Shown here: positions 30,958-39,692 of the stretch, in pieces | Numbering within the stretch: the stretch's first letter is position 1 | How the letters are laid out: the number at the start of each line of letters is the position of its first letter | NCBI GenBank assembly: GCA_963821235.1 | Contig: CAWGCS010000001.1 | Location: 510,751-574,750 of the forward strand | Length of the DNA stretch: 64,000 nucleotides | From: an uncultured Chloroflexia bacterium | Lineage (GTDB): Bacteria > Chloroflexota > Limnocylindria > Limnocylindrales > CSP1-4 | Direction of reading: 5' to 3' | Notes under the pieces: model-generated | Told to the model about the DNA's origin: nothing | Database searches by the model: none | What the model saw: the letters and a program-made list of their open reading frames with translations, nothing else | Program-made: the position numbers and the translations under genes

Positions 30958-31515
30958 ATGGATGCCGCGTGGACGCACCCCGATCTCTCCCGGGAGGCCG
31001 TCGCCTGGCTCGGCACGACCGGGCCGGACGGGCAGGCAGCGCTCGTCCCCACCTGGTTCGCCTGGGACGGCGAGGCGTTCCTCGTGGCCTCCAAGCCCGG
31101 CGCCCGCAAGGTGCGCAACGTCCTGGCCAACCCGCGGGTCATGGTGGGCGTCGCCGCCGTCGGCACCGGGATGCGGGCCCAGCTCGTGGAGGGCCGGGCG
31201 GAGCTCCTCCAGGCCCCCTCGGCCGAGGCGTTCCGCGGCCTCGACCTGGCGAAGTACGACGCGCTCCTGGCCGCCGACGGCCTGACCTGGGATGGCTACT
31301 TCGCCCGGTACCCGGCGGCGATCCGGATCGTCCCCACCCGCTTCCTGCCGTGGCAGGGGCCCGCGCTGGCACGGGCCGACCTGGCGCCCAAGGCTGGCCG
31401 GAAGGGGATCCGGGCAAGCCTCGCGGAGGCCCTCCGGCGGCTCGACCCGCGACCTGCGGCGAGACCGGTGCCGCGACCGGCGGCGCTCCTGGCCCCGCGG
31501 CCGGCGGCGGCCTAG
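30958..31515 (+). CDS. pyridoxamine 5'-phosphate oxidase family / PPOX-class F420-dependent enzyme
   Basis: Has the PNPOx-like split-barrel N-terminus ([53 protein letters not shown]). Confidence 0.6.
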
Positions 31516-33218
31516 CCTCCGCCCTCCCCCATCGGGATCCGGATCCCGCGCTCGCGAGCGACCTCGTGCGCACGCTCGTAGCCCGCGTCGGCATGGCGGA
31601 TCACGCCCATCCCCGGATCCGTCGTGAGGACCCGCTCCAGCTTCGCCGCCGCCAGGTCCGTCCCGTCAGCCACCACGACCATCCCGGCGTGCTGGCTGTA
31701 CCCGATCCCCACGCCGCCCCCGTGGTGGATGCTCACCCACGTCGCCCCGGCCGCCGTGTTCACGAGAGCGTTGAGGAGCGGCCAGTCGGCCACCGCGTCC
31801 GTCCCATCGGCCATCGCCTCCGTCTCGCGGTTCGGCGAGGCGACCGAGCCCGAGTCCAGGTGGTCGCGACCGATGACGATCGGGGCGCTGACGACCCCCG
31901 AGCGCACCAGCTCGTTGAAGGCGAGGCCGGCCCGCGCCCGCTCGCCATAGCCCAGCCAGCAGATCCGGGCCGGCAGCCCCTGGAACGGCACCCTGGCCTC
32001 GGCCATCTCGATCCAGCGCCGGAGGCCGGCGTCGTCCGGGAAGAGGCGCAGGATCTCCGCGTCGGTCGCCAGGATGTCGGCCGGGTCGCCGGAGAGCGCG
32101 GCCCAGCGGAAGGGGCCTCGCCCCTCGCAGAACTGGGGCCGGATGAAGAGCGGCACGAACCCGGCGAAGTCGAACGCGTTCGCCACCCCCGCCTGCTGGG
32201 CCTGGGCCCGGATGTTGTTGCCGTAGTCGAAGACGACGGCGCCCCGCTCCCCGAAGGCGAGCATCGCCCGGACGTGGGCGGCCATCCCCTCCATCGCCCG
32301 CCGCTGGTAGACGTCCGGCCGGGTGGTCCGCAGGACGAGCGCGTCGGCCAGGGTGATCTCGGGCGGGACGTAGCCGCCGAGGGCGTCGTGGGCCGACGTC
32401 TGGTCCGTGACCGCATCGAAGCGCTCGCCCGACCTCGCCCACGCCGGCGCGATCTCGGCCGCGTTGCCGACGAGGGCGATCGACAGCGGCTCGCCGCGCG
32501 AGGCGGAGTGGCGAGCCATCGCCAGCGCGGCCTCGGGTGAATCGGTGAGATGGTCGACGTAGCCGATCTCGTGCCGGCGGCGGGCCCGCTCCCCGTCGAC
32601 CTCGATGGCGATGCAGACGCCATCGTTCATGGTGACGGCGAGCGGCTGGGCGCCGCCCATCCCACCCAGGCCGGCCGTCAGGACCAGCCGCCCGCGCAGC
32701 GTCCCCCCGAAGTGCTGGCGTGCCAGCTCGGCGAAGGTCTCGAAGGTGCCCTGCAGGATCCCCTGGGTCCCGATGTAGATCCAGGAGCCGGCCGTCATCT
32801 GGCCGTACATCATCAGGCCCTTCCACTCCAGCTCCCGGAAGTGCTCCCAGGTTGCCCAGCGGCCGACGAGGTTCGAGTTGGCGATGAGGACCCGCGGCGC
32901 CCAGGGATGGGTGCGGAAGACGCCGACCGGCTTGCCGGACTGGACGAGCAGCGTCTCGTCGTCGGCGAGGGCGCGCAGCTCGCGGACGATGGCGTCGAAG
33001 GCCGCCCAGGAGCGGACGGCTCGACCCGTGCCGCCGTAGACGACGAGGGCGTCGGGGTTCTCGGCGACCTCGGGGTCGAGGTTGTTCATGAGCATCCGGA
33101 GGACCGCCTCCTGCTGCCAGCCGCGACAGGAGATCTCCGTGCCCCGGGGAGCGCGTACGGGGCGGGCGCCCGGCAGCGGCGGGGCGTCGTGGGCGCCGGG
33201 GGTCGTCGTCATGGCCAC
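31512..33218 (-). CDS. hutU: urocanate hydratase
   Basis: Full-length urocanase with signature regions ([41 protein letters not shown]-binding [12 protein letters not shown]). Confidence 0.95.
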
Positions 33219-33304
33219 AGTGTCGCGCCGCCGAGGTGCGGTGTCACGCCGGCGTGGTGCGGTGTCGCGTCGCCGGGACCCCCCGATCGGCTACCCTCGG
33301 GGCC

Positions 33305-34630
33305 ATGGGAATCCTCGCCGTCCGTCGCTGGGCCGACCTCGACGTCGCGGAGCAGGCCCGCCTCTGCGCCCGCTCGACGGCCGCTGTCTTCGAGCCCGGC
33401 CTGCAGCGCTCGATCGAGGCTCTCTTCGAGGACGTCCGCGCCCGGGGTGACGCCGCCGTCATCGAGGCGACCGAGCGCTTCGACGGCGTCCGGTTCGCCG
33501 CCGAGGACCTCCGAGTCCGGCCCGACGAGCTGGCCGCCGCCCACGAGGCCTGCGACCCGCCGCTCCTGGCGGGGATCCGCGAGGCGATCCGCAACAGCCG
33601 GCTCTTCAACGAGGCCCAGGTCCGGGCGACGGCGAGCGGCTGGCATGAAGAGGTGCGGCCGGGGTTCGTCCTCGGCGAGCAGGTCGCCCCCATCCCCTCC
33701 GCCGGCCTGTACGTCCCGGCCGGCAAGGGCAGCTTCCCGTCCGTCCTGGTCCAGGTCGGGGTGCCGGCGCTCGTGGCCGGCGTGCCCGAGATCGCGGTGC
33801 TCGTGCCGCCCATGCCGGGGACGGGCGCCGTGGACGGCGCCACCCTGGCGACGGCCCGGGAGCTCGGCCTGGCGAACGTCTTCCGGGCGAACGGCCCGGC
33901 CGGGATCGCCGCCCTCACCTTCGGCACGGCGACCCTCCCGCGGGTCCGCAAGATCGTCGGCCCGGGCAGCCCCGCCGTGACCGCCGCGCAGGTGCTGGCC
34001 CAGCGCTTCGGCACGGCGACGAACATGCTCTGCGGCCCGTCCGAGAGCCTCCTCCTCGCCGACGCGACGGCCGATCCGTGGCGCCTCGCCCTGGACCTCG
34101 TCAACGAGGCCGAGCATGGGACGGATTCGGCGGCCCTCGTCATCACCGACGCGCCCGGCCTGGTGGCGTCGCTCGAGGCCGCCGTCGCCGAGCAGGTGGC
34201 CGCGCTTCCGGAGCCGCGCCGCGGCTACGCGAGCGCCGTCCTCGGCGACCTCGGCGGGGTCCTCCTCTTCGACACGATGGACGGCGTCATCGCCTTCGCC
34301 AACGACTACGCGGCGGAGCACGTCCAGGTCGCGACCGCCGACCCGGAGGCGACCCGGCGCCGTCTCCGCTACGCCGGCGAGATCCTGCTCGGCCAGGACA
34401 CGCCGATCGGGGCCAGCAGCTACTCGATCGGGATCCCGGCGACCCTCCCGACCGGCGGCTACGCCCAGCTCAACGGCGGCGTGACGGCCCGCACCTTCCA
34501 GACGACGAGCTCGCTGGCCACGCTGACGCCGGACGCCCTGGCCGGCCTCGCCGGCCCGACGACCGCGCTCGCCGACCACGAGGGTTTCCCGGCCCACGCC
34601 AACGCCTTCCGCGGCCGCGGGCTGGGCTGA
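33305..34630 (+). CDS. histidinol dehydrogenase family protein (HisD paralog)
   Basis: HisD-like motifs are present (AGPSEsLLLADataDp region, NEAEHGTDSAAL, HVQV). Confidence 0.75.
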   Translation: MGILAVRRWADLDVAEQARLCARSTAAVFEPGLQRSIEALFEDVRARGDAAVIEATERFDGVRFAAEDLRVRPDELAAAHEACDPPLLAGIREAIRNSRLFNEAQVRATASGWHEEVRPGFVLGEQVAPIPSAGLYVPAGKGSFPSVLVQVGVPALVAGVPEIAVLVPPMPGTGAVDGATLATARELGLANVFRANGPAGIAALTFGTATLPRVRKIVGPGSPAVTAAQVLAQRFGTATNMLCGPSESLLLADATADPWRLALDLVNEAEHGTDSAALVITDAPGLVASLEAAVAEQVAALPEPRRGYASAVLGDLGGVLLFDTMDGVIAFANDYAAEHVQVATADPEATRRRLRYAGEILLGQDTPIGASSYSIGIPATLPTGGYAQLNGGVTARTFQTTSSLATLTPDALAGLAGPTTALADHEGFPAHANAFRGRGLG

Positions 34631-34633
34631 CCG

Positions 34634-34957
34634 ATGGCGGCGATGGTGACCCCGGACCCCGTCCTCGCGCTTCCCGCCCGGGCGGTCGCCGCGGCCACCG
34701 GAGCCAGCCAGCGCACCGCCCAGCGATGGCGCGCCGGCAGCCGACCCCGCCGACGCACGTACGTAGAGCGGCTGGCCGATCTCGCCGTGGTCGTGGGGAT
34801 CCTCGGCGCGTCGCTGGCCCCGCGGGGGACGGCGGCGTGGCTCACCGCGCCCAACGCCTACCTCGGCTGGGAGCGCCCGGCCGACCTGCTGGCCCGCGGC
34901 GAGACCGAGCGGGTCCGCGGGGCCGCCCTCGCCTACGCCGCGGGCGACGCGACCTGA
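34634..34957 (+). CDS. Xre-like antitoxin of RES-Xre toxin-antitoxin system (DUF2384/MbcA-ParS-like)
   Basis: 107 aa. C-terminal motif GWERPADLLARGETERVRGAALAYAAG is typical of DUF2384 antitoxins. The gene lies immediately upstream of a RES-domain gene. Confidence 0.7.
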   Translation: MAAMVTPDPVLALPARAVAAATGASQRTAQRWRAGSRPRRRTYVERLADLAVVVGILGASLAPRGTAAWLTAPNAYLGWERPADLLARGETERVRGAALAYAAGDAT

Positions 34958-35553
34958 GCGCCCGGCCGCGCCCGCACCCGTCGCCCGGCGTCGCTTCCGG
35001 ACCGCCCCTCGGCCGGTTCGCCGGGCGCATCTACCGGCAGACCGCTCTCCGGGTGCCGGCCTGCACGCCCCCGGCCGAACAGGCGACCCACCCGGGCCGC
35101 TACCACGGGCCCGGCGATCCCTGGCCGCTGTACGCCGCCCTCGACGAGCCGACGGTCTGGGCGGAGTGGGCCCACGCGACGGGCGGTGCCGTGCGCCCCG
35201 AGGACGACCGCCGCTGGCGTTGCGCCTTCGAGGCCGACCTCGCCGTCCTGGACCTCCGCGACGAAGGCACGCGGAGGGCCCTCGGCGTGGCCCTCGACGC
35301 CCTCACCGGCGCGTGGTCGCCGGACCGCCCGAACGGAGCCTGCCGCCGGGTGATGGCGGCCGCGATCGAGGCCGGCGCGGACGCGATCATCGTGCCGTCC
35401 GCGGCGCGGCCGGGCGGCTGGTCGATCGACGTCCTGCCGCGAGCGTTCGGGCGCCTGCGCCTCGTCTCCCGCGAGGAGATGGCCCCGGCCCCGCCGCACG
35501 GCGACCGGCCGAGCACCGAGGTCGGTCAGAGCTCGCGGCGGACCACGGGGTAG
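34954..35553 (+). CDS. RES-domain toxin (MbcT/ParT-like NAD+-targeting toxin)
   Basis: Has the RES signature: GRYHGPGDPWPLYAALDEPTVWAEW (R...E) and the IIVPSAARPGGWSIDVLP S-motif. The N-terminus is unresolved: there is no in-frame ATG or GTG between the antitoxin stop and the conserved core. A CTG overlaps the antitoxin TGA. Confidence 0.65.
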   Translation: MSARPRPHPSPGVASGPPLGRFAGRIYRQTALRVPACTPPAEQATHPGRYHGPGDPWPLYAALDEPTVWAEWAHATGGAVRPEDDRRWRCAFEADLAVLDLRDEGTRRALGVALDALTGAWSPDRPNGACRRVMAAAIEAGADAIIVPSAARPGGWSIDVLPRAFGRLRLVSREEMAPAPPHGDRPSTEVGQSSRRTTG

Positions 35554-36314
35554 CGCTCGTCGTCGACGACGACGGCGAAGCCAGCCTGCTCCCAGAACGC
35601 GGGCGTGGCCGCGGAGGTGGCGTCAGCCTTCTTGCCGACCTCGGGGTAGGCCTCCACGGCGGTGAAGCCACGACCCGCGAGGTCCTCGCAGACGGCTTCG
35701 ACGAGGCGCAGGCCAAGGTTGCGTCCGCGATCGGCGGCCGTGACGGCCACGCAGGTGACGACCGCCGGCAGGGGCGCCCGGGGGAGCTTCGGGTAGAGCT
35801 CGCGCAGCCGCAGGGCGCGCGGATAGGCGGACAGGGGCCCGAACTGCGTGTAGGCGGCCGGTCGCTCGCCGTCCTCGTCCACGACGAGCAGCACCTTCGC
35901 GTAGCTGCCGAAGACCGCCAGGCCGCGCCCGAGGAGCGCGAGCTTCGGCGGCGCCCCGGGACCGACCGCGGGGCGGGCGGCGCGCCTCGGTGCGAACGGG
36001 TTGTCGGCCAGGGCGTCATCGTCCGCGTCGAGCGCGAACGGGTTGAGCGGGGCGGCCCGCTTCGGCGCGAACGGGTTGTCGCGCTCCTCGAGGTCGGCGA
36101 GGAATGGGTTGACGGGGGCACGACGGGCCGGCGACGGGGCGCTCCCGGACCCGGCCTCGCCCATGCGCAGCCAGCTGGCCCGGTGGGCCCTGGAGCCCCG
36201 GTCGGCGTCCTCCCAGTAGTCACAGGTGCGATGATCGAACGTGGCGTCGGCGCACGGGGGCAGGAGGCCGAAGGCCTCGGCGTCGGTCACGTCGACGATG
36301 CGAATCCGATCCAT
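35526..36314 (-). CDS. GNAT-family N-acetyltransferase with internal NPF-repeat insertion
   Basis: GNAT motifs (RGRNLGLRLVEAVCEDLAGRGFTAVEAY). Unusual NPF x4 repeats (VNPFLADLEERDNPFAPKRAAPLNPFALD...DNPFAPRR) are inserted in the middle. The 3' end overlaps the RES gene 3' end by about 28 bp. Confidence 0.55.
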   Translation of the reverse strand: MDRIRIVDVTDAEAFGLLPPCADATFDHRTCDYWEDADRGSRAHRASWLRMGEAGSGSAPSPARRAPVNPFLADLEERDNPFAPKRAAPLNPFALDADDDALADNPFAPRRAARPAVGPGAPPKLALLGRGLAVFGSYAKVLLVVDEDGERPAAYTQFGPLSAYPRALRLRELYPKLPRAPLPAVVTCVAVTAADRGRNLGLRLVEAVCEDLAGRGFTAVEAYPEVGKKADATSAATPAFWEQAGFAVVVDDERYPVVRREL

Positions 36315-36432
36315 GGGCAGAGGGTAGCGCGGCGCCGCGACGGCGCGGGCGCGGTCACGGCGCGGTGGCCACCGCTCCCGGCCGGATCGGGACGCCCGGC
36401 ACTGGCGAATCCGCCGCTCCACGGGCGACGCT

Positions 36433-37134
36433 GTGTCCATGAGCACCGTCGTCGCCACGCCACCGACCCCCCTCGACGCCAGCGAGGATCCCGCATCGGG
36501 CCCGGCCCTGGCCCCGCCGCCCGCCATGTCGAGCCTGGTCCAGGCCCTCAGCGACGCCAGCGTGACCCTCTTCCGCTACGGCAACCGGTACGCGATGGTG
36601 CCGTTCCATCGCGCCGGGCTGGCGGCCTGGCTCGGCACTCCCCTGACCGGCTGGCAGTGCCTGGTCACCACCACGGGCCGCCGCTCCGGCCTGCCGCGCC
36701 ACACGCCGCTGGGCTACATGGTCGCCGACGGCGCGGTGTGGGTCATGGCCGGCTACGGCCCGAAGACGCTGTGGTTCCGGAACCTCCTCGACGAGCCGCG
36801 GACGACGCTCCTGCTCCCCGGCCGGCCGCCGATCGCCACGATCGCCAGCGAGGAGCGCGACCCGAGCGTCCGGGCCCGGATCCTGCCGCCCCTCGTGCGG
36901 TCGATGAAGCTGCCCGGGTCGTTGATCGGGAGCTACCCCCCGGCCACCAGCGACGAGCGGATCCTCGAGCTGGTGGCATGGATTCCCCTCGTCCGCCTCG
37001 AGGCGGCGGACGGAGCGCCGATCGCGGCCGGCCCGGACGATCCCGGTGGGCTGGGCTGGACCTGGCGCCAGGCGCTGGCCGTGGGAGCCACGCTCCTCGG
37101 TTGCCGGGCCCTCTGGCGCGCCGTCCGTCGCTGA
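36433..37134 (+). CDS. deazaflavin (F420H2)-dependent nitroreductase family protein (DDN/DUF385)
   Basis: Core motif TTTGRRSGLPRHTPLGYMVADGAVWVMAGYGPKTLWFRNL matches the DDN split-barrel family. Confidence 0.7.
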   Translation: MSMSTVVATPPTPLDASEDPASGPALAPPPAMSSLVQALSDASVTLFRYGNRYAMVPFHRAGLAAWLGTPLTGWQCLVTTTGRRSGLPRHTPLGYMVADGAVWVMAGYGPKTLWFRNLLDEPRTTLLLPGRPPIATIASEERDPSVRARILPPLVRSMKLPGSLIGSYPPATSDERILELVAWIPLVRLEAADGAPIAAGPDDPGGLGWTWRQALAVGATLLGCRALWRAVRR

Positions 37135-37254: not shown

Positions 37255-38940
37255 TCAGGCCTCGACGAGGTCGGCCAGCGCGCCGGCGTGGACGAGGTGG
37301 GTGACCGCCGCGATGTCGCCGCCCATCTCGCGGTCGTCGTCGAGGGCCGGCACGACGGCCCGGATCCGGCGGTGGGCCTCCGCCACCCCGGCTCCCGGCG
37401 CCGGCGCCTCGGAGGCGGGGAGGCCGAGGGCGGCCGCCACGGCAGCCCGCCGCAGGTCGAGCGCCTGCGCCCCGACGAGCAGCTCGAGGGCCACGATGCT
37501 CTCCACGCCGTCGAGGACCTGCCGGGCGTGGCGTGCCGCCGTCGCGCCCATCGAGACGTGGTCCTCCTGGTTGGCGGAGGTCGGGATGGAGTCGACGGAC
37601 GACGGGTGGGCCAGGACCTTGTTCTCGGACGCCAGGGCTGCCGCCGTGTACTGCAGGAGCATCATCCCCGAGTTGAGGCCCGGAGCCGGCGCCAGGAAGG
37701 CGGGCAGGCCGCCATTGAGGCGCGCGTCGAGCAGGAGGGCGATGCGCCGCTCGCTGATCGCTCCCAGCTCGGCGAGGGCGAGCTTGGCGAAGTCGAGGGC
37801 CAGCGCGATCGGCTCGCCGTGGAAGTTGCCGCCGGAGATCACGAGCCCGCCGCCGGTCGCGGCCGTCCCCGTGTCGGCGACGCCGCCCTCCGGGAAGACG
37901 AGCGGGTTGTCGGTCGCCGCGTTCATCTCCACGTCGAGGACCCGCCGGAGGTGATCGAGGGCGTCGCGCACGGCGCCGTGGACCTGCGGCACGCAGCGGA
38001 GGGAATACGGGTCCTGGACCTTGTGCGACGAGGCGTGGTGGTGGGCCATGAGCCCGGAATCGCGCAGGACGTGACGCATCTCGGCGGCGACCGCGACCTG
38101 CCCGGGATGCGGACGGGCGAGCTGGTACGCCGCGGCGTAGGCAACGTCGGTCCCGAGGAACGCCTCCAGCGACTGGCCGGCCGCGAGGGACGCCGTGCGG
38201 GCCAGCCGGTCCGCGTCGGCCAGCAGCAGCGCCCCGAAGGCGCTCATGAGCTGGGTCCCGTTGAGGAGCGCCAGCCCCTCCTTCGCCTCGAGGACGAGCG
38301 GCTGCAGGCCCATCTCGCGGAGGGCCAGCAGGGCCGGCATCAGGCGGCCGTCCAGCTCCACCTCGCCCCGGCCGATGAGGGGCAGCGCGAGGTGGGCCAG
38401 CGGCGCCAGGTCTCCCGATGCGCCCACGCTCCCCTGCGCCGGCACGGCCGGGTGGATGCCGAGCTCGAGGAATTGCAGGAGGCGATCGACGATCTCCGGC
38501 CGGCAGCCCGAATGGCCGAGGGCCAGCGTGTTCGCCCGCAGCAGCAGCATGGCCCGCACGACGTCGCGCGGCAGCGGCGGGCCCACGCCGACGGCGTGGC
38601 TGGCCAGGAGGTTCTCCTGGAGGCGGCGCGCGTCGGCGGGCGGGATGAACGTCGTCGCCAGGTCGCCGAACCCGGTCGTGATGCCGTACACGATCTCGCC
38701 CGCCGCGACGAGGCGCTCGACGACGGCCCGAGCCTCGTTCATCCGCGCCCGGGCATGGCGGTCGAGGGAGGCCCGGGCGCCGCCGCGGGCCACCGCCTCG
38801 ACGGCCGCGATCGTCAGGTCGGCGCCCGTCAGCACGACCACGTCGCGCTCCGCGTCCGGCGCGGGAAGACCCGGCTCGAACTGCGGCCCGCTCGCGTGGT
38901 CGACGGGCGGGACGGTCGGCTCAGTCACGCCGCCGAGCAT
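37255..38940 (-). CDS. hutH: histidine ammonia-lyase
   Basis: Carries the ASG triad for the MIO prosthetic group (SVGASGDLAPLAHL) and HAL motifs (GGNFHGEPIALALD, SANQEDHVSMG). Confidence 0.9.
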   Translation of the reverse strand: MLGGVTEPTVPPVDHASGPQFEPGLPAPDAERDVVVLTGADLTIAAVEAVARGGARASLDRHARARMNEARAVVERLVAAGEIVYGITTGFGDLATTFIPPADARRLQENLLASHAVGVGPPLPRDVVRAMLLLRANTLALGHSGCRPEIVDRLLQFLELGIHPAVPAQGSVGASGDLAPLAHLALPLIGRGEVELDGRLMPALLALREMGLQPLVLEAKEGLALLNGTQLMSAFGALLLADADRLARTASLAAGQSLEAFLGTDVAYAAAYQLARPHPGQVAVAAEMRHVLRDSGLMAHHHASSHKVQDPYSLRCVPQVHGAVRDALDHLRRVLDVEMNAATDNPLVFPEGGVADTGTAATGGGLVISGGNFHGEPIALALDFAKLALAELGAISERRIALLLDARLNGGLPAFLAPAPGLNSGMMLLQYTAAALASENKVLAHPSSVDSIPTSANQEDHVSMGATAARHARQVLDGVESIVALELLVGAQALDLRRAAVAAALGLPASEAPAPGAGVAEAHRRIRAVVPALDDDREMGGDIAAVTHLVHAGALADLVEA

Positions 38941-39014
38941 AGCCCCGCGGGACCACGCTCGACCGGACGATCGGCGGGAGGTCGCGCGTCGCCGCCTCGC
39001 GTATCCTCCGGGCA

Positions 39015-39692
39015 ATGCTCGCCTTCATCGACCAGATCGTCATCCCCTTCCTCGGGAACCTCTACGGTGCGGTCGGCTATCTCGGCGTGACGCTCGCCAT
39101 GGCCATCGAATTGGCCATGATCCCCCTCCCGTCGGAGCTGATCCTCCCGTTCGCCGGCTTCCTCATCTCCGACCCGGCGCAGGCGGAGCCGCTCACCGGC
39201 CAGCCGTGGAGCTTCTGGCTCGTCGTCGTGGTGGGGACGATCGGGAACACGCTCGGTTCGCTCATCGCCTACGCCATCGGCGCATACGGCGGGCGGCCGT
39301 TCCTGGAGCGCTACGGCAAGTACCTCCTCATCCGGCAGCACGAGATCGAGATCGCCGACCACTTCTTCGCCCGCTGGGGTGCCCAGACGGCGTTCTTCAG
39401 CCGCCTCCTGCCGATCGTCCGGACCTTCATCAGCTTCCCGGCCGGGGTCGCCCGGATGGACCTCCGGAAGTTCATCGCCTACTCGACCGCCGGTGCCTTC
39501 CTGTGGTCGACCGCCCTCGTCTGGGCCGGCGTCCAGCTCGGCGCGAACTGGGTGGAGATCCGGGAGATGCTGCAGCCGTTCGACCTGGCGATCGCCGTCG
39601 CGGTGGTGGTCGGCCTCGTGGTCCTCCTCTGGCTTCGCCTGGGTCGGCCGATCCCGGGCCGTCGAGGGGCGCCCGGTCCGGGGGCCGAATAG
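39015..39692 (+). CDS. DedA-family membrane protein
   Basis: SNARE_assoc/DedA motifs (LPFAGFLIS, GNTLGSLIAYAIG, FFSRLLPIVRTFISFPAG). Confidence 0.85.
   Translation: MLAFIDQIVIPFLGNLYGAVGYLGVTLAMAIELAMIPLPSELILPFAGFLISDPAQAEPLTGQPWSFWLVVVVGTIGNTLGSLIAYAIGAYGGRPFLERYGKYLLIRQHEIEIADHFFARWGAQTAFFSRLLPIVRTFISFPAGVARMDLRKFIAYSTAGAFLWSTALVWAGVQLGANWVEIREMLQPFDLAIAVAVVVGLVVLLWLRLGRPIPGRRGAPGPGAE

Follow-up and report, generated by a model that had tools for sequence, protein, structure and literature searches.

How is a toxin translated when its reading frame offers no conventional start codon? The question is raised by positions 34634–35553 of a 64,000-nucleotide (nt) stretch of DNA from an uncultured Chloroflexia bacterium (contig CAWGCS010000001.1; the whole stretch is referred to here as the window), where a gene for an Xre-type antitoxin is followed on the same strand by one for a RES-domain toxin whose reading frame is −1 relative to that of the antitoxin. 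This high-GC region has its closest relatives among metagenome-assembled genomes of Chloroflexota that carry the label "uncultured Chloroflexia" or Limnocylindria. An initial annotation of the locus had left three possibilities for the toxin, namely translation from a non-canonical start by coupling, N-terminal truncation, or inactivation. We favor the first of these: with a probability of roughly 70%, judged from comparison with related loci, the RES protein is made by weak initiation at a CUG codon that overlaps the antitoxin stop codon, probably coupled to the termination of antitoxin translation.

From the antitoxin stop to the first strand of the RES fold (GRIYRQ, 35023–35040) there is no in-frame ATG, GTG or TTG. 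The sole candidate start before this strand is a CTG (34954–34956) overlapping the antitoxin TGA (34955–34957), an overlap that the initial annotation had already pointed out. Its further statement, that no in-frame ATG or GTG precedes the conserved RES core, is correct up to the first strand and fails beyond it, since a GTG in the RES frame (35053–35055, the V of RVPAC) lies after the antitoxin stop and before the GRYHG motif. A scan for promoters and terminators across 33000–36700 found none, a result that is uninformative in a GC-rich genome.

Related loci were gathered from species-representative genomes, metagenome contigs and exact-protein look-ups. The search patterns were peptides from the RES protein itself and none spanned the junction between the two genes, so the junction was not selected for in the sampling. 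The systematic set consists of 43 loci with a recognizable first strand (35 distinct at 95% nucleotide identity, 24 clusters at 85%). At all 43, the TGA stop is preceded by C and the resulting CTG is in frame with RES, so that the same 4-nt cCTGa overlap recurs with a codon that lies outside the ATG/GTG/TTG set defining NUGA pairs. Three loci that were read directly, beyond the 43, have the same in-frame cTGA (L049, L051 and L052), and the junction is identical in three independent assemblies (L005–L007). With three independent assemblies and 43 related loci carrying cTGA in the RES frame, the junction is neither a chance occurrence nor a sequencing error. Several Microflora Danica (MFD) loci have broken antitoxin, RES, hisD-like and hutH frames (L002, 3605–3860; L004, 4001–4500; L008, 4266–5598 and 8922–10689); the breaks look like assembly indels, not biology, and these loci were used for junction reading only.

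The frame of the junction is kept although its length is not. The spacer from the CTG to the Arg codon of the RQT motif in the first strand takes 16 values among the relatives (45, 48, 51, 54, 57, 60, 63, 69, 72, 75, 78, 81, 87, 90, 117 and 303 nt), and all 16 are multiples of 3; were the spacer untranslated, about two thirds of insertions and deletions would break this pattern. At 19 loci, not one ATG, GTG or TTG occurs between the upstream RES-frame stop and strand 1. Indeed, L016 has a RES-frame stop just 6 nt upstream of the CTG, and in L001, L002 and L044 the CTG is the only candidate start. Where canonical codons do occur in the tail that precedes strand 1, they occupy non-homologous positions, from +5 to +59. 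The antitoxin, in contrast to RES, starts with ATG in 20 of 23 lineages. In L051 (51–354), CTGA and strand 1 are separated by a spacer of ~100 codons that is rich in Pro, Arg and Ala, in frame and free of stops, which suggests that the N-terminal tail can expand greatly.

Two features at the end of the antitoxin gene accompany the overlap. Its last codon ends in C in 24 of 24 clusters (ACC, GTC, ATC or GCC), against a background of 46% for the Thr, Val and Ala codons of the same antitoxin genes. Furthermore, the Gly codon at −4, four before the antitoxin stop, is GGG in 16 of the 24 clusters versus 21% elsewhere, and creates a Shine-Dalgarno (SD)-like GGGGA 6 nt upstream of the CTG. A crude scan of the genes in the window, based on GC at the third codon position (GC3), returned only canonical starts near upstream stops and neither other CTGA-coupled genes nor general CTG usage; the scan is too coarse for short genes, which it missed.

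That the frame is kept whatever the spacer length, and that canonical starts are missing, would be explained equally well if the toxin had no start of its own. A −1 shift or a bypass of the stop at ACC-UGA, with the CUG read as Leu, would then produce antitoxin, linker and RES as a single chain, and cCUGa would be a recoding site giving a tethered antitoxin-toxin whose Pro/Arg linker (15 to ~100 residues) is later cleaved, or which is autoinhibiting in cis. The tail does resemble a flexible linker, and a frameshifted product of stop suppression has been reported, beside termination-reinitiation, at the AUGA overlap of M. tuberculosis uPPE2-PPE2 (PMC11260477). We nevertheless regard such recoding as unlikely. 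The last 51 nt of the antitoxin gene contain no slippery heptamer (X XXY YYZ) in the window or its relatives, the codon that would sit in the P site (ACC, GTC, ATC or GCC) and the base preceding it both vary, and re-pairing in the −1 frame would be expected to leave a central mismatch. No stimulatory RNA structure was found downstream in the six junctions that were folded (z-scores against shuffles of −0.41 to +1.11), and neither the downstream sequence nor its length is conserved. Recoding also gives no account of a fixed C in place of A, G or T, other than the avoidance of a start, and in MbcT-type modules the homologous GTGA does contain a real GUG start. If true, recoding at cCUGa would be both a new way to build or regulate a toxin-antitoxin system and a new, heptamer-independent type of frameshift.

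The pair belongs to the MbcA/MbcT-like (Xre-RES) type II toxin-antitoxin modules, here in a Chloroflexota genome of high GC content, in agreement with the Xre-type antitoxin and RES toxin first recognized at the locus. As a single sequence, the antitoxin scores below the cut-offs of Pfam PF09722 (22.6 bits versus 24.5) and of NCBIfam Xre_ParS (E 3e-7, below the curated cut-off). The family profile built from 23 orthologues matches MbcA (6fkg_C, E 1.5e-11) over nearly its full length, residues 15–104 against 23–112, and within the family PF09722 matches 17 of the 23 members and a helix-turn-helix model 9 of them. The RES domain is recognized above the cut-off (Pfam PF08808, E 2.3e-12, 47.6 bits versus 23.2). 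An AlphaFold2 model of the RES protein, computed from a 49-sequence alignment, has a predicted local distance difference test score (pLDDT) of 92.3, and its best solved Foldseek match is MbcT (6fkg; E 3.9e-8, template modeling (TM) score 0.64–0.69, 22% identity), with NatT, the P. putida RES toxin and ParT ranking next. In the 49-sequence alignment, R49 is nearly invariant (at least 90%) and Y60, E71 and S149 are invariant; these are the Arg-Glu-Ser triad and the Tyr that NAD+ binding requires.

In MbcT, the RES motif is R47-E69-S126, and R27, located on the strand equivalent to strand 1, is essential for phosphorolysis of nicotinamide adenine dinucleotide (NAD+) (PMC6436930). Numbered from the CTG, the RES protein of the window reads Y27-R28-Q-T, then R49, Y60 and E71; MbcT, whose sequence was checked against 6fkg for this comparison, reads Y26-R27-Y-T, then R47, Y58 and E69. 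Arg28, within YRQT, is thus the probable equivalent of MbcT R27, on the basis of motif spacing and the fold match rather than of a printed alignment. A PDB sequence search with the single RES sequence gave no meaningful match, the RES profile matched MbcT in the PDB over the C-terminal half only, hhalign of RES against MbcT was likewise confined to the C-terminal half, and a global alignment of the two proteins placed the N-terminus wrongly. By analogy with MbcT, the toxin is predicted to degrade NAD+.

The codons ahead of GTG 35053 carry a coding signal of their own. GC in the spacer and tail, read by RES-frame codon position, is 0.866 at the third position versus 0.78 at the first and 0.77 at the second, matching the pattern of the RES core, and tail substitutions between close relatives fall at codon positions 1, 2 and 3 in the numbers 24, 32 and 56. 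Between the window and L005, the tail and strand 1 differ at two sites upstream of the RQT Arg codon, both synonymous, and strand 1 has a third synonymous difference shortly after that codon (GCT/GCC, Ala31). For pairs within the clade that shares the histidine-utilization (hut) cluster of the window, the ratio of nonsynonymous to synonymous substitution rates (dN/dS) is 0.17–0.33 in the RES core, 0.14–0.31 in the antitoxin and, in most pairs, 0.08–0.2 over 19 codons around strand 1 that lie mostly upstream of GTG 35053. These values point to purifying selection on the segment upstream of that codon. In the model, strand 1 spans residues 20–31, with a pLDDT of 98 for the block of residues 21–30, and the tail (codons 2–19) has no secondary structure.

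These observations bear on whether translation could instead begin at the internal GTG 35053, which is the first canonical in-frame codon past the antitoxin stop and the start given to the closest homologues in the databases. Initiation there would yield a 166-residue RES protein, therefore without strand 1 and Arg28, a truncated toxin that would probably be inactive or altered. Such a start is very unlikely: the 15 preceding codons show as much constraint as the core, they form strand E20–31 of a confident fold and hold the Arg that matches the essential MbcT R27, the codon itself is GTC in L008 and L002 and not GTG in many other relatives, and the in-frame spacer would be left unexplained. 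The residue aligned to the called M/V start (MGRF, VARL) is encoded by CTC, ATC, GTC or GTG depending on the lineage and follows a conserved LAP motif; it is an internal hydrophobic residue. The proposal that the toxin is about 20 residues shorter at its N-terminus than MbcT holds only when counting from GTG 35053. Counted from the CTG, the protein has 199 residues, with Arg28 against R27 in the 186-residue MbcT, and therefore an N-terminus of MbcT-like length.

It might also be that the toxin gene is decaying, its start lost and the gene unexpressed, with an orphan antitoxin or regulator left behind. The window lacks a canonical start, and the pair has been kept by vertical descent inside a metabolic cluster, a setting in which a toxin could be expendable. 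This we consider highly improbable, as the dN/dS of the RES core stays at 0.17–0.33, with no stops or frameshifts in short-read assemblies, in lineages with dS up to ~0.8, the catalytic residues are all invariant or nearly so, and the start-less layout is family-wide, not a private lesion. Together, the constraint on strand 1 and the presence of the essential-Arg equivalent upstream of GTG 35053 lead us to reject both the truncation and the pseudogenization that had been entertained for this toxin.

No more credible is a start at GTG 34837 within the antitoxin gene (118 nt upstream of its stop), which would give an overlapping protein of 238 residues: several relatives also have a GTG at −118, where the RES frame of the window is open, but this codon is a by-product of the Trp codon that the antitoxins conserve (GCG-TGG), other relatives have CTG or no such codon in its place, and many loci have a RES-frame stop 6–70 nt upstream of the CTG. 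The open RES frame of the window in fact extends 1.3 kb upstream as an artefact of high GC, and stops interrupt it in relatives. The same applies to a mechanical open reading frame of 491 residues (34078–35553) that runs from the 3′ portion of the hisD-like gene through the antitoxin gene into RES; it was rejected as an artefact of open frames in GC-rich DNA, with stops in relatives. A prfB-like +1 shift is ruled out, since the RES frame is −1/+2, not +1, with respect to the antitoxin.

For initiation at the overlapping CUG, we propose the following course of events. The antitoxin would be translated from its normal ATG up to a UGA that shares the cCUGa with the toxin start. A small fraction of ribosomes would then start RES on the CUG with initiator tRNA, most likely ribosomes that have just terminated at the antitoxin UGA (termination-reinitiation), probably assisted in most family members by the SD-like GGGGA 6 nt upstream. 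The product would be a 199-residue RES protein in which a Pro/Arg-rich tail of ~19 residues is followed by strand 1 with Arg28 and then by the R49-E71-S149 triad. As CUG initiates very poorly, toxin would be made only alongside the antitoxin and in much smaller amounts. Selection would hold C before TGA because A, G or T at this position would give a stronger start, and more toxin. Initiation efficiency at the CUG is presumably low, and the CTG layout is probably a way of keeping toxin synthesis very low. The non-canonical start by coupling finds strong comparative support in the cCTGa overlap, the frame kept over 16 spacer lengths, the GGGGA of most relatives and the GTGA of MbcT-type modules.

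Several points weigh against initiation at the CUG. Bacteria normally initiate at CUG with very low efficiency, and in mycobacteria the codon counts as a non-start. Its actual use here is something we infer from comparative evidence, and the conserved frame, taken by itself, is equally expected from a frameshifted antitoxin-RES fusion. TGA often follows a C in this genome (8 of 13 gene junctions), and for this reason we give conservation of the frame more weight than conservation of the C. The SD-like element is not universal, and the window's own clade has GGC GAC in place of GGGGA. The variable tail evolves fast (dN/dS 0.3–0.8 in the hut-cluster clade). Finally, the related loci are not phylogenetically independent, so that naive probabilities calculated from them are overstated.

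Table 1. Features of the antitoxin-toxin locus and its flanking genes, in window coordinates
Feature	Coordinates	Strand	Remarks
Histidinol-dehydrogenase-family gene	33236..34630	+	Directly upstream; TGA 3 nt before antitoxin ATG; Pfam PF00815, E 2.6e-104
Xre/MbcA-type antitoxin gene	34634..34957	+	ATG start; TGA stop 34955–34957; 107 residues
cCTGa stop/start overlap	34954..34957	+	CTG 34954–34956 (proposed RES start) over antitoxin TGA 34955–34957
RES (MbcT-like) toxin gene, redefined	34954..35553	+	199 codons, from CTG to TAG 35551–35553
Pro/Arg/Gly-rich N-terminal tail of RES	34957..35010	+	Codons 2–19; length and sequence vary among relatives, frame constant
First β-strand of RES fold	35011..35046	+	Residues 20–31, GRFAGRIYRQTA; Arg28 at 35035–35037
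Internal in-frame GTG (Val34)	35053..35055	+	Start used by gene callers in close homologues; judged not to be the real start
RES triad span	35098..35400	+	Arg49 35098–35100, Glu71 35164–35166, Ser149 35398–35400; also Tyr60
Convergent gene	35526..36314	−	Overlaps RES 3′ end by 28 nt; weak GNAT similarity only

The pair directly follows the stop of a HisD-family gene (Table 1), as initially described, and this gene exceeds the cut-off of TIGR00069 (340.9 bits versus 243.8). It stands next to hutU (31512–33218 in the window), with hutH at 37255–39015, and the order hutU, hisD-like gene, xre, RES, convergent gene, F420H2-reductase-like gene and hutH is kept in the closest clade (L001–L008), where the hisD-like gene next to hutU is conserved at 83–96% identity; the upstream part of this order is conserved in L048–L050 as well. 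A hisD-like gene thus lies between hutU and a toxin-antitoxin pair within a catabolic cluster, and in L005 genes for formiminotransferase-cyclodeaminase and FTHFS are found nearby. Within the closest clade, the toxin and antitoxin proteins are 65–80% identical, versus 83–98% for their neighbors, and more distant relatives of the pair have none of these hut neighbors. The location within a histidine-utilization cluster is therefore a property of the closest clade only, distant relatives of the pair being found elsewhere, and the pair looks like an old insertion that is vertically retained and not a functional part of histidine catabolism.

The gene downstream of RES is convergent, as had been stated, whereas its identification as a GNAT acetyltransferase is weak (Pfam Acetyltransf_1, E 0.017, below the cut-off). 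The protein has 262 residues as called in L005 and up to 333 when delimited mechanically, with a long N-terminal part of low complexity. Within the P0002 clade, a convergent PemK/MazF-type toxin gene with a small partner directly follows RES (L048, 2974–3653; L049, 3573–4252; L050, 1766–2445). The presence of PemK/MazF-type genes where the window has a weakly GNAT-like one suggests that this spot accumulates toxin-antitoxin modules.

Database annotation of the family reflects the difficulty of its start. A homologue with 94% identity (P0001) is called from the codon matching GTG 35053. Among 120 homologue clusters, 23 include the strand-1 Arg, 49 start between this residue and the RES Arg, and 48 begin within the catalytic domain, usually at the Met of TMWAEW, so that about 80% of the homologues are called without their full N-terminus. 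Some of the short-called homologues may be contig-end fragments; the overall picture is consistent with gene finders being unable to place the start in this family. On a Clavibacter plasmid (NZ_CP083440.1; L055, 501–561), NCBI starts an MbcT-like RES protein at GTG 561 and similarity to MbcT by tblastn already sets in at the GTGA at 501, which looks like another N-terminal truncation despite an available canonical start. The annotation error is systematic, with Chloroflexota family models and toxin censuses built on truncated proteins as a result, and gene finders limited to ATG, GTG and TTG will go on missing such genes. A CUG start in a stop/start overlap throughout a family would also provide a test system for how far termination-reinitiation relaxes the choice of start codon in bacteria. 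Furthermore, it would push to an extreme the habit of RES genes to use weak GTG starts, and support the idea that toxin dosage is set by the start codon.

The closest known system is MbcA/MbcT (Rv1990c/Rv1989c of M. tuberculosis and plasmid orthologues). Both have the antitoxin first in the operon and a 4-nt stop/start overlap at the same position, and the spacing R49-Y60-E71 equals that of MbcT R47-Y58-E69, with S149, the triad Ser, corresponding to MbcT S126 and Arg28 to R27. MbcT is known to start at GUG, and MbcT-type modules on actinobacterial plasmids (Mycobacterium, Mycolicibacterium and Clavibacter) have the same overlap with this canonical codon, GTGA. The junctions read tGTGAgcgat in M. 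avium pHP17a, GTGA in M. chubuense pMYCCH.02 and in Clavibacter, and cCTGAgcgcc in the window, the second codon AGC being common to the window, M. avium and Clavibacter (two of the three MbcT-type modules). By contrast, the proposed start codon in the overlap is CTG in every member of the present family examined, a variable Pro/Arg-rich tail replaces the N-terminal sequence of MbcT, sequence identity is low, and NAD+ phosphorylase activity is putative here.

The RES-Xre modules of P. putida, P. aeruginosa PA14 (PA14_51010/51020) and Photorhabdus luminescens share the fold (matches to 6gw6 and 9r35) and a deliberately weak start codon. Indeed, a conserved GTG opens the res gene in each of P. 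aeruginosa, P. putida, P. luminescens and M. tuberculosis, and changing GTG to ATG raises both protein level and toxicity (PMC8065639). These modules are more distant (TM 0.48–0.50 to the query) and use a canonical weak GTG, unlike the much weaker, non-canonical CTG of the window; in the literature searched, no RES-Xre module is reported to start with CTG. With termination-reinitiation at NUGA pairs (ATGA/GTGA; Huber et al. 2019, PMC6728339; uPPE2-PPE2, PMC11260477), the present junction shares the geometry of a co-directional 4-nt overlap, here of a stop with a proposed start, and a downstream gene without an independent strong ribosome-binding site. The cases described there use AUG or GUG (or UUG), and coupling at the CUG is presumed here; no description of a family-wide CUGA overlap was found in the literature searched. 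CTG starts are documented for E. coli hda and yfjD and for the internal toxins of Salmonella Rhs-CT, where CTG initiation likewise serves low expression, in one case of a toxin. Those are isolated genes whose initiation is driven by an SD sequence, and here the CTG lies inside a stop overlap and is conserved across a toxin family. The Chloroflexota family thus takes the known theme of weak toxin starts one step further, to a family-wide CTG in the stop/start overlap.

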